A DNA stretch of 64,000 nucleotides from the NCBI RefSeq assembly GCF_013167455.1, contig NZ_CP038328.1. One strand, 5' to 3'. The notes beneath the pieces were generated by a model, which saw only the letters and a program-made list of their open reading frames with translations, was not told the origin of the DNA and searched no databases. Below, one piece after another: positions 7,716 to 10,609 of this stretch. This DNA comes from Escherichia coli O157:H7 (GTDB lineage: Bacteria; Pseudomonadota; Gammaproteobacteria; Enterobacterales; Enterobacteriaceae). Made by a program: the position numbers and the translations under genes. Position 1 is the stretch's first letter; each line of letters begins with the position of its first letter.

Positions 7716-8378
7716 TCAAACAAAACCAGCCGCCTTCCGGCGCTCGTATTCCTGTTTCAGTAATTCAATTGGCGTTGGCCCTTGCGGGCACTTCGGCGAT
7801 GCGAGTTGTCTCCGGATCGGGGGAATACTCATCCCGTTACCAACTTGCTTTGCCCATTTCGTCAGTTGCCGTTCTGCAAGTCGTTTTAACTCACCTTCCG
7901 TCATCTGCCGCTCAATCCCTCTGTCACGCATCTCGAGGCAAATGTGGTACAGCACCGGCTGTGGCCACGGGTATTTATCACTCCCGTCGTACCGCCAGGA
8001 TTCATTCCTCCAGCGACGGTACTCCTCCATCACGGCATCCACCGTCAGGCCAAATGGATTTGCCCCGCTCTCCGAAATCAACGCCACAAACTCAGCCAGG
8101 TCCGGAGGCCACGTTTCACCCGCCCGGCAGCGGTCCATGCACTGACGGCAGACCTGCCGGATTTGCTGTTCAGTCATCGCGCCAATCTGAGCAATCCAGA
8201 GCTTCGACGGCGCAGCCCCGTTCTTCTGGGTCCAGCGGTTCGAATACACCTCCCCCATAAGTTCCCACAGCTTCCAGGCCGTTTCCGTTGCTGATAAATC
8301 CGTTTTCACGTTCCCACTGTTCACGTGCTGCCCGAATTTCCTGAACTGCCCGTGATGCGGTGCCACCTGGTGCTGCAT
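7716..8378 (-). CDS. Replication protein P-like (lambda P family helicase loader); start uncertain (8378, 8258 or 8177)
   Basis: Aligns by eye to recalled lambda P: ETWPPDLAEFVALI vs PFLPSPGQFVAWC; YPWPQPVLYHICLEMRDRG vs YPWKSNAHYWLVTNLYQNMR; TEGELKRLAERQL vs TDAELRRKAADEL. Confidence 0.6.
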   Translation of the reverse strand: MQHQVAPHHGQFRKFGQHVNSGNVKTDLSATETAWKLWELMGEVYSNRWTQKNGAAPSKLWIAQIGAMTEQQIRQVCRQCMDRCRAGETWPPDLAEFVALISESGANPFGLTVDAVMEEYRRWRNESWRYDGSDKYPWPQPVLYHICLEMRDRGIERQMTEGELKRLAERQLTKWAKQVGNGMSIPPIRRQLASPKCPQGPTPIELLKQEYERRKAAGFV

Positions 8379-9213
8379 GGCTTACCCCCTTGCTGACTGG
8401 TTTTACCTGTGCCCTGACGTGCTGCACGTGACGGGCAAATTTCTGCTCCCACTGAACCTGCGTGAAAACCTTCCCCTCCGCCATCCAGTAATCCCGGAAT
8501 GCGGCAAGCTCAGCAGGTGTAAACTCAGGCTCAGGCAGAGCCATACCCCACAATGCAGCCCGCTGTCGAAAATCCAGCGACGGCCGCCAGACACCAGTCA
8601 TCGGAAATTTCCCGATCGGTTCGCTCAGGCCATCCGGGTATTCAGGTTCTGCTGTCTGCAACGGCGCGCCATTCGACTCACTGGCTGGAGCACTCTCGCG
8701 CATGCGCGCGTTATGTGTGGGGTTTAATTCTTTATCTGTATCTGTATCTGTCGTGACTTGTCGTGACATATGCGTGACGCGTCGTGACTCATCGTGACAA
8801 TCAGTGTTCTGCTCCCGCAGTCTTTCCCGCTCCCGCTGCGCTCTCTTGCGCTCTGCCGGGGATTTTGCGGTTTGCGAAACATTACCGTTATCCTCCTTCA
8901 TCACCTGGCGTTTTTCCCATCCGGAAATAAGATCGCCATCCAGAACTCGCCCCTGCATTGCATGCAAAATTGAATCAATCACGTCTTCCGTCACATCAAG
9001 CGCACTTGCTAAATCTTCCGTCGTGACATCAATGTGACCACGTAGTGACTCGCCGTGACATTTCGTGACATTTCGTGACGCACTCACCAGAAGGTGGATA
9101 TACACCGCCATCACTGTTGCGATTGGCTGTCCTGAGACCCTGGCAATGGTTCGCCATTTGGGATCATTTGGCATGTCATGCCACAATCTGAGCCAGGCAT
9201 TAGCCATACTCAC
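8170..9213 (-). CDS. Replication initiator / replisome organizer (O-like; DnaT-like C-terminal region)
   Basis: 347 aa; N-terminal WLRLWHDMPNDPKWRTIARVSGQP...ISGWEKRQ resembles the phage replisome-organizer N-domain; contains two iteron clusters. Confidence 0.6.
   Translation of the reverse strand: MSMANAWLRLWHDMPNDPKWRTIARVSGQPIATVMAVYIHLLVSASRNVTKCHGESLRGHIDVTTEDLASALDVTEDVIDSILHAMQGRVLDGDLISGWEKRQVMKEDNGNVSQTAKSPAERKRAQRERERLREQNTDCHDESRRVTHMSRQVTTDTDTDKELNPTHNARMRESAPASESNGAPLQTAEPEYPDGLSEPIGKFPMTGVWRPSLDFRQRAALWGMALPEPEFTPAELAAFRDYWMAEGKVFTQVQWEQKFARHVQHVRAQVKPVSKGVSHAAPGGTASRAVQEIRAAREQWERENGFISNGNGLEAVGTYGGGVFEPLDPEERGCAVEALDCSDWRDD
8751..8797. repeat. Iteron cluster A: 5 copies of (T)CGTGAC, preceded by TCTGTA repeats (putative origin inside O-like gene)
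   Basis: TCGTGACttgTCGTGACatatgCGTGACgcgTCGTGACtcaTCGTGAC read directly. Confidence 0.6.
9019..9080. repeat. Iteron cluster B: 6 GTGAC-containing repeats
   Basis: TCGTGACatcaaTGTGACcacgtaGTGACtcgcCGTGACatttCGTGACatttCGTGAC read directly. Confidence 0.55.
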
Positions 9214-9275: not shown

Positions 9276-9701
9276 TCAATGCACGACAACAGCATTACCA
9301 GGCTGACCCCCACTGTTAGTCAGGGTGCCCCAGGCGATCGCCGCTGCGACAAAATCATCCACATCTTTCACCAGCCGATCCCTCCGTTCGACGATCTCAC
9401 GGTAATATTCAGAGCTGTGACTGCGCATACGGGCCACCAGCAGAGGCGGCATTGCCTTTTCGATCGCCGGTAACAGAGCCTGCATTTTTTCAACAGCATC
9501 AGGGGTGTCTTTATCCAGCCAACGGAAAATTTTCTGGGTATTACGAGCCAGGGCTTCCGGATGGCTGTCGTCGTACAGTTCCGGGAACGTCATCCCCAGT
9601 TCGAAATAAGTCCGGGCTATTTCAGCTGCAGGAACTTTCTCACCATCAGGATATGCCCAGGCATTCATCGCCATGCGGATGTGCTCATGTTTGATTTTCA
9701 T
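9276..9701 (-). CDS. YdaT-like protein (CII-like regulator position)
   Basis: 141 aa beginning MKIKHEHI, as recalled for Rac YdaT; follows the Cro-like gene. Confidence 0.55.
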   Translation of the reverse strand: MKIKHEHIRMAMNAWAYPDGEKVPAAEIARTYFELGMTFPELYDDSHPEALARNTQKIFRWLDKDTPDAVEKMQALLPAIEKAMPPLLVARMRSHSSEYYREIVERRDRLVKDVDDFVAAAIAWGTLTNSGGQPGNAVVVH

Positions 9702-10132: not shown

Positions 10133-10609
10133 ATGCTTAGTGGTAAAGACTTAGGCCGAGCGATAGAGCAGGCCATTAACAAAAAAATTGCATCAGGAGC
10201 CGTCAAATCAAAGGCGGAAATCGCACGTCATTTCAAAGTCCAACCACCATCAATCCATGACTGGATTAAGAAAGGTTCGATAAGTAAAGACAAACTTCCA
10301 GAACTATGGCGTTTCTTTTCTGATGTGGTTGGTCCAGAGCATTGGGGGCTTAACGAATACCCCATACCAACCCCATCCACTTCAGATACAAAAAGTGAAC
10401 TTTTAGACATAAACAGCCTTTATCAAGCCGCCTCTGATGAAAAAAGAGCAATTGTGGCTTTCCTCTTATCTGGAAATGCTACGGAGCCTAGTTGGGTTGA
10501 TCATGACGTTCGTGCCTACATTGCCGCAATGGAAATGAAGGTAGCTAACTATCTGAAAAATCAAGAATCAAAACGGAAAAGCCAGAACATCACCAAGACA
10601 GGAACTTAA
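10133..10609 (+). CDS. Prophage repressor, RacR-like (N-terminal XRE-type HTH, no S24 peptidase domain)
   Basis: 158 aa; HTH segment SKAEIARHFKVQPPSIHDWIKKG; same length and divergent arrangement as Rac RacR with ydaS/ydaT. Confidence 0.65.
   Translation: MLSGKDLGRAIEQAINKKIASGAVKSKAEIARHFKVQPPSIHDWIKKGSISKDKLPELWRFFSDVVGPEHWGLNEYPIPTPSTSDTKSELLDINSLYQAASDEKRAIVAFLLSGNATEPSWVDHDVRAYIAAMEMKVANYLKNQESKRKSQNITKTGT

Follow-up and report, generated by a model that had tools for sequence, protein, structure and literature searches.

In phage lambda, the replication initiator O and the helicase loader P are encoded by adjacent genes, and the C-terminal part of O interacts with the N-terminal part of P. 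The O stop and the P start overlap by 4 nucleotides (nt) in lambda (locus L007; O 387-1286, P 1283-1984), as they do for genes 15-14 of phi80/HK225. Classical out-of-frame phage overlaps, which arose by overprinting, include those of phiX174 D/E and A/B/K and of lambda Rz/Rz1. Here, the replication module of an Escherichia coli O157:H7 prophage was analysed in a 64,000-nt stretch of contig NZ_CP038328.1 (assembly GCF_013167455.1), the whole of which is called the window below. In this module, an O-like initiator gene and a P-like helicase-loader gene overlap out of frame by 209 nt on the minus strand.

The module resembles those of lambda and phi80/HK225 in its gene order (repressor/cro region, initiator with internal iterons, loader of family PF06992), and homology to lambda P spans the protein from its N-terminal domain to the C-terminal part that binds DnaB. 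It differs in the length of the overlap, 209 nt out of frame as opposed to 4 nt, and in its initiator, which is not a homologue of lambda O and carries a DnaT domain followed by a tail of ~80 amino acids (aa); P identity to lambda is ~15-26%. With the classical overprinted genes it has in common that a single segment of one strand is read in two frames, one partner being weakly constrained or disordered where the other is constrained. Unlike in those cases, the overlap is not nested; it is a partial, terminal overlap of adjacent, coupled replication genes, and the dominant constraint changes frame within it.

It is considered likely, with good confidence, that the O and P genes truly overlap and that P starts at 8378, inside O and in the other frame, giving a protein of 220 aa. 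The 153-aa model in RefSeq then probably cuts 67 aa off P. The proposed true coding sequence of P occupies 7716..8378 (minus strand, stop 7718-7716). The O-like gene occupies 8170..9207 (minus strand, stop TGA at 8172-8170) and encodes 345 aa from the ATG at 9207, the start used by the NCBI Prokaryotic Genome Annotation Pipeline (PGAP), or 347 aa from a GTG at 9213. The dual-coding overlap (8170..8378, minus strand) comprises O residues 279-347 (69 aa) and P residues 1-70, and position 1 of each P codon is position 2 of an O codon. The P frame is open from 8381, with an in-frame TAA at 8384-8382 just upstream. The proposed start, ATG1 (8376..8378, minus strand), lies across the O codons His279-Ala280 (CAT GCA). 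A Shine-Dalgarno (SD) sequence, AAGGGGG (8385..8391, minus strand; GGAGG in most other genera), is located 6 nt upstream of it. Two further ATG codons of the P frame lie within the overlap on the same strand: that of Met41 (8256..8258), which is the start of 180-181-aa models in other genera and a possible secondary internal start, and that of residue 68 (8175..8177), which is the RefSeq/PGAP start and is judged incorrect. The segment MQHQVAPHHGQFR...ETAWK is the stretch that distinguishes the long P from the shorter models. The initial annotation had described an out-of-frame O/P overlap of roughly 200 bp with a P frame from 8378 and an O end at 8170; all of these coordinates are right, on the minus strand. 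At the stop rate of 0.045 per codon found in the same relative frame of the O-only part, the chance that a single sequence has no stop in 68 codons is ~0.04, so the window alone cannot decide whether the overlap is real.

When one genome per species was scanned, 24 loci were obtained, of which 15 diverse and intact ones were used for the overlap statistics. These span at least 12 genera, among them Escherichia, Citrobacter, Klebsiella, Pluralibacter, Phytobacter, Kluyvera, Prodigiosinella, Pectobacterium, Erwinia and Samsonia. In all 15 the two genes overlap, by 182-224 nt, and the P frame is free of stops for 61-75 codons within O. For the 40 codons before Met41, the expected probability of an open P frame is 0.157 per lineage, which gives at most 1.5e-5 for six independent lineages; as the loci are phylogenetically related, such combined probabilities are upper bounds on significance. 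On alignment, the P frame upstream of 8177 was open in every intact homologue examined. Of the three readings offered in the initial annotation, this supports the one by which the overlap may be real, and it is the opposite of what that annotation had named as grounds for rejection, namely a conserved ATG at 8177 with nothing conserved upstream.

In a protein search, 88-100% of the long open reading frame (ORF) was covered by P homologues 214-223 aa in length from Enterobacter, Klebsiella, Salmonella, Raoultella, Symbiopectobacterium and others. Across genera the homologues measure 214-232 aa, and the shorter models of 180-181 aa begin at Met41. Invariant positions in the P alignment are Met1, Trp38, Met41, Arg48, Trp49, Lys52, Asn53, Gly54, Pro57 and Trp61, with Trp35 nearly invariant, and N-terminal conservation begins at about residue 28. 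In Leclercia adecarboxylata NCTC13032 (L021), the P frame is interrupted at ~2686-2704, shortly beyond the ATG of position 68, in a run of A that reads ACTGAAAAAGCAAATC where relatives read ACTGAACAGCAAATC; this break is either a homopolymer assembly error or a pseudogene.

The start signals of P are conserved inside the O gene. An ATG occupies the Met1 position in 15 of the 15 diverse loci and in six of seven distant loci, with GTG in the remaining one. The O residue across ATG1 varies (H/N/D/Y), but its codon is always xAT and the next codon Gxx, which is the pattern expected if the ATG, and not the O amino acid, is selected. An SD sequence (GGAGG, GAGG or AGGGGG) was present 5-9 nt upstream of ATG1 in every diverse locus. 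SD strength was expressed as the energy of the duplex with the anti-SD sequence and compared by Mann-Whitney test with a background of 232 ATGs inside O genes (mean -2.6 kcal/mol). The energy for ATG1 (8378) is -11.8 kcal/mol in the window and averages -9.2 kcal/mol over the 15 loci (p = 2e-9). For Met41 (8258), preceded by TGGGA(A/G), the mean is -4.6 kcal/mol (p = 7e-4). For position 68 (8177) it equals the background at -2.6 kcal/mol and is not significant; this codon is CTG or TTG in three of the 15 loci, and leucine is found here in many homologues.

Selection was examined as pairwise diversity by codon phase in ungapped blocks, where O position 1 corresponds to P position 3, O position 2 to P position 1 and O position 3 to P position 2. 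In the O-only region, the diversities at O positions 1, 2 and 3 were 0.22, 0.21 and 0.53, a pattern that follows O. The part of the overlap encoding P residues 9-24 still follows O (0.33, 0.21 and 0.54, the last being 0.538). For P residues 25-40 the pattern is mixed, with P position 3 highest (0.45, 0.32 and 0.30), and from Met41 to the O stop it follows P (0.38, 0.08 and 0.10), as it does in the P-only region (0.50, 0.16 and 0.11). The 15-locus set agrees, with diversities of 0.28, 0.22 and 0.51 at P positions 1, 2 and 3. Overall diversity of the stretch from Met41 to the O stop (8258-8173) was 0.188, the lowest among the zones compared. According to these codon phases, the O frame gives way to the P frame as the one under dominant selection partway through the overlap, and purifying selection on the P frame extends from about residue 25 to the O stop.

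The O frame, too, is actively kept open. When the P protein was held fixed and synonymous codons were randomised, the O frame remained open over its last 45 codons in ~10% of cases per locus, while it is really open in all loci; the segment therefore seems to be dual-coding, and not P with accidental read-through of O. P position 3 is also a little less diverse within the overlap than outside it. Across diverged homologues both frames are thus open beyond chance, and the start signals of the downstream gene are conserved inside the upstream one.

Profile matches assign P to the lambda P family of helicase loaders. The Pfam family PF06992 matched residues 55-187 with 60.9 bits (cut-off 26, E = 1.6e-16), PHROG 109 ("P-like helicase loader") matched residues 18-219 (E = 1.7e-63), and the family profile matched the lambda P chains 8v9t_V and 8v9s_A. 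As a member of this family, P would be expected to bind the DnaB helicase and deliver it to the initiator-origin complex. P also lies directly downstream of an origin-binding initiator gene in the early right operon, the position of a lambda P family member. In pairwise BLASTP with lambda P only residues 85-192 align and none upstream of 85, so that profile methods were needed. The similarity to lambda P upstream of 8177 that had been proposed initially stands at profile level, where residues before 68 are included, whereas the specific residue pairing given for it was not reproduced; MAFFT pairs lambda IRRQWVLAF with PSKLWIAQI.

A full-length P profile was searched against 1.8 billion representative proteins and gave 461 relatives. 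Among these are many full-length proteins whose alignment begins at profile positions 9-30 (e.g., P0125, P0128, P0199, P0203, P0216, P0219 and P0222); that of the lambda-like relative P0203 begins at position 27. Many shorter proteins match only positions ~12-105, which marks the N-terminal domain as an evolutionary unit. Its common motif, LWxxMxEIYxxRWxxxxGxxPSxxW...LTxxQI...WPPxLxEF, follows a variable leader of ~25-55 residues in every member. Trp35, Trp38 and the helices that follow are shared with P-like proteins whose genes are not overlapped. Four such relatives were found: lambda, HK225/phi80 and PAS61, with 4-nt overlaps, and the metagenomic locus L034, with a 288-nt gap. Because the N-terminal domain is conserved in these, its conservation cannot be a by-product of O coding.

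Structure prediction with AlphaFold2 (AF2) from a 56-sequence alignment gave P a mean predicted local distance difference test score (pLDDT) of 86. Residues 1-27 are predicted to be disordered (pLDDT <50) and are followed by helices at 28-45, 47-53, 59-66, 70-85 and 94-103 (pLDDT 90-97; 96-97 for residues 31-60). Met41 lies inside the first of these, so a start there cuts the helix, and a start at residue 68 deletes three helices. Only the 220-aa reading contains a complete N-terminal domain; the 153-aa RefSeq model is without helices 28-66. Lambda P loses its replication function when residues 9-86 are deleted in frame (PMC3640518).

The last 85 residues of O, a flexible linker and P were also modelled together with AF2 from a paired 20-sequence alignment (mean pLDDT 66). 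In this model O residues 288-303, RAVQEIRAAREQWERE, form a helix (pLDDT 71-87), and the O tail beyond it is disordered (pLDDT <50). Projected on the minus strand, the O helix covers the O-dominated part of the overlap (8305..8352), where P has its disordered leader (residues ~10-25). The P helices 28-45, 47-53 and 59-66 cover the P-dominated part (8173..8297), where O has its predicted-disordered acidic tail (last ~42 aa). The first P helices begin at 8297, after the O helix has ended at 8305. Structured segments of the two proteins would accordingly be interleaved and not coincide in the models, which agrees with the codon-phase data.

The most serious alternative places the start of P at Met41 (ATG 8258), for a protein of 180 aa and an overlap of 89 nt, with the frame upstream untranslated or translated only incidentally. 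We regard this as unlikely. It accounts for the invariance of Met41 and the weak SD-like TGGGA(A/G) in front of it, for the absence of conservation and the disorder of P residues 1-27, and for the 180-181-aa models of PGAP in several genera. The SD-like signal, however, is there because of conserved Trp-Glu codons. Met41 is situated in the middle of helix 28-45 at a pLDDT of 96, the nearly invariant Trp35 and the invariant Trp38 precede it, and the LW motif recurs in distant relatives with non-overlapped genes. P-frame periodicity starts before residue 41 as well. A start at Met41 would also leave unexplained why an SD sequence and an ATG 40 codons upstream, with an open frame between, are kept in every locus. 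A shorter 180-aa form from Met41 may nevertheless be made in addition to the 220-aa protein.

Far less credible is the RefSeq model itself, by which P starts at the ATG at 8177 (153 aa) and the open frame upstream is a chance by-product of O coding. PGAP and GenBank annotate identical and related DNA in this way, the arrangement resembles the short O-stop/P-start overlap of lambda, and the open frame of a single sequence has a probability of ~0.04. Against this stand the leucine in many homologues with CTG or TTG in three of the 15 loci, the missing SD site, the P-frame periodicity and lowest diversity of 8258-8173, and the loss of three confidently predicted helices together with 40 positions of the Pfam domain.

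A frameshift, whether a strain mutation, a sequencing error or a programmed shift yielding an O-P fusion, is highly improbable: although columns 1-347 of PHROG 15931 (482 positions) correspond to O and columns 279-482 to P residues 1-220, more than 20 loci share the two-frame layout, in which the O stop and the P start are separate signals, the passage from O to P needs a +1 shift with no O-frame stop at the junction to pause ribosomes, the conserved SD and ATG already explain P expression, and folding of the RNA around the site gave no significant structure (z = 0.33). Since the same arrangement occurs in more than 20 loci, a frameshift lesion, the third reading of the initial annotation, is excluded. 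The features of a programmed frameshift were not found either, slippery heptamers being judged by reading the sequence and not by a systematic scan. The PHROG 15931 match suggests that some phage records carry a fused ORF of O residues 1-278 and P with its junction at ATG1, which could be due to sequencing error, mutation or a real fusion. Two fusion proteins were considered as frameshift evidence and rejected. P0099 is an internal deletion fusion, in which a DUF1376-type O stops halfway through its DnaT domain and continues in frame with P from residue 104, and P0030 is a rearranged DUF1627-P fusion; both look like products of rearranged defective prophages.

Several points weigh against a P start at 8378. 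The evidence for translation from this position is indirect and comes from sequence comparison and predicted structure. P residues 1-27 show little conservation and are predicted to be disordered, and residues 9-24 show periodicity of the O frame and not of the P frame; together these indicate that the leader sequence is barely selected. Met41 is invariant and has its weak SD-like sequence (-4.6 kcal/mol, p = 7e-4), and the NCBI pipeline prefers the 153-aa model in E. coli but models of 180-181 aa in other genera. The linked AF2 model of the O tail and P gave no confident evidence of contact, its output being without contact information, and the relatedness of the loci limits the combined probabilities as stated above.

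Under the favoured reading, with P starting at 8378, P would be initiated at its own ribosome-binding site (AAGGGGG, ATG 8378) in the +1 frame relative to O. O would be translated through to 8170, so that the 209 nt encode parts of both proteins, and both products would be made. The 5' third of the overlap would encode the conserved O helix 288-303 in one frame and the disordered P leader (residues 1-27) in the other. The remaining 3' two-thirds would combine the P helices within residues 28-66, the first three of the N-terminal domain, with the weakly constrained acidic O tail, which is predicted to be disordered. Initiation of P at 8378 may be an independent event that takes place as ribosomes engaged in O translation cross the site, and these ribosomes may modulate it. 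Sequestration of the SD site until O is translated was considered, but is not supported by the RNA fold around the P start, which showed no significant structure (z = 0.33). By analogy with lambda, the co-encoded O tail and P N-terminal domain may contact each other. The overlap could, moreover, hold a matched O/P pair together during mosaic prophage recombination.

The overlap extends to distant relatives, seven loci of which showed overlaps of 134-245 nt: 227 nt in L033 (34% identity), 197 nt in L032, 149 nt in L038, 134 nt in L039, 212 nt in L040, 245 nt in L041 and 212 nt in Vibrio phage D72 (OZ195827, L035; O 753-1613, P-like ORF 1402-2061). For four distant relatives on short contigs, the upstream gene is an ORF that runs off the contig end. 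In Vibrio phage D72, both the O tail (SRV...EERGG...DLDNGDW) and the P N-terminal domain are homologous, and the ATG lies in the same context, GTAAACCATG. The initiator of this phage differs, being HTH_36/DnaD_N-like without DnaT, and the C-terminal half of its downstream protein is unrelated to PF06992. In the record of this phage the downstream gene is annotated from 1735, which is too late, as the ORF with the P N-terminal domain starts at 1402 inside the O-like gene. In L033, a metagenomic contig, the gene caller retained P and omitted a 348-aa O-like ORF (1681-2727) entirely.

The initiator bodies that bear the tail differ: an unclassified N-terminal domain with DnaT in the window, DUF1376 with DnaT in other prophages, and HTH_36 without DnaT in the Vibrio phage. 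Conversely, Escherichia phage vB_EcoP_PAS61 (Uetakevirus) likewise has a DnaT-domain initiator ("primosomal protein I") followed by a P-family loader ("replication protein P"), but that initiator (HTH_36 and DnaT) has no long tail and ends 4 nt into P, which measures 261 aa and is not overlapped. The tail and overlap are therefore separable from the DnaT domain, and, the same tail being found on differing bodies, the overlap cassette can be regarded as a module in its own right. A more speculative proposal is that the ~210-nt segment is a portable "interface cassette", encoding in its two frames an O tail and a P N-terminal domain that must recognise each other and cannot be separated by recombination. 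If this were true, it would explain the attachment of the segment to unrelated initiator bodies and to different loader C-termini.

The O proteins end in ALDCSDWRDD* in the window (8170-8200), in DLDNGDWSSK* in Vibrio phage D72 and in IDLESSDWRAE* in L032. These ends resemble lambda O, KLDLTNTDWIYGVDL, and HK225/phi80 O, DLDFNNTDWAYGVIR, from phages with a 4-nt overlap, although the motif is short. The LDxxxDW motif at the lambda and phi80 O ends hints that non-overlapped modules could be related to overlapped ones through duplication and un-overlapping.

In the window, the module starts with a RacR-like repressor gene (10133-10609), the only one of its genes on the plus strand. It is followed on the minus strand by a cro-like helix-turn-helix gene, a ydaT-family gene (9276-9701), the O-like initiator gene, P and a DUF1627 gene. 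The DnaT DNA-binding domain PF17948 occupies residues 203-269 of the O-like protein (Pfam, 62 bits), and the C-terminal tail of ~80 aa comes after it. The protein matches PHROG "replication initiation protein" families, and its DnaT match in NCBIfam is below threshold. The Pfam search for lambda O homology gave no family besides PF17948. The name "O-like", used in the initial annotation, fits its functional role and position, while its sequence shows the DnaT domain in place of a lambda O domain.

Iteron-like GTCACGA repeats were found on the minus strand in two clusters within the O-like gene (8751-8798 and 9021-9079). One of these consists of four exact copies ~10 nt apart and the other of three exact copies plus variants; together they account for seven of the 15 matches in the whole window. 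The clusters are probably the replication origin of the prophage, inside the initiator gene as in lambda. With iterons inside the O-like gene and a P-family loader, the module is a lambda-style combination of an initiator with internal origin and a helicase loader. Compared with E. coli prophages whose initiator has a DUF1376-type N-terminal domain, similarity starts at about 8747, and the 9213-8747 side differs. This suggests that the N-terminal, origin-binding half of O and the iterons are swapped as one module, while the DnaT domain, the tail and P appear to travel together. Two plus-strand ORFs, 7546-8145 (199 aa) and 7634-8260 (208 aa), are antisense to P and to the end of O; they probably arise from codon bias on the coding strand.

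A nucleotide search showed the DNA of the window to be 100% identical to E. coli O157:H7 chromosomes, and the replication region was matched in 1,808 of 5,426 complete E. coli genomes. Databases contain the exact 220-aa product as AAG55878.1/Q8X5H2, "unknown protein encoded by prophage CP-933N", from strain EDL933. The RefSeq/PGAP model of the identical DNA has P start at the ATG at 8177, with 153 aa and an 8-nt overlap with O, and other records use the equivalent start. In public records, identical DNA carries P as 220 aa on 121 contigs (including EDL933), as 180 aa on at least 1,000 contigs and as 153 aa on at least 1,000 contigs. A homologous P gene in the Stx2a phage record LC567818 (~86% identical DNA) is modelled with 140 aa. 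PGAP chooses 153 aa in E. coli and 180-181 aa, from Met41, in Citrobacter, Klebsiella, Brenneria, Pectobacterium and others; NCBIfam holds no model for this P protein.

Literature searches returned no description of this O/P overlap, of the gene pair or of ydaU/ydaV-type modules. The long ORF has been in databases since the annotation of EDL933, and long overlaps are already a known phage feature; what is not described in the searchable literature is the conserved O/P dual-coding cassette and the systematic truncation of P in current annotation. In E. coli, at least 1,000 contigs carry the current RefSeq model, which is probably without the N-terminal domain that is essential in lambda P; structure prediction, interaction studies or cloning based on its 153 aa would work with a truncated protein. 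One overlap partner is omitted altogether by some gene callers. The ~210-nt dual-coding region belongs to a replication module that is very common in Enterobacterales prophages and also occurs in Vibrio phages. Its switch of dominant frame and its interleaving of structure and disorder make it a clean natural case of how overlapping genes share constraint, and it may be relevant to the question of how mosaic phage genomes keep the specificities of initiator and loader linked.

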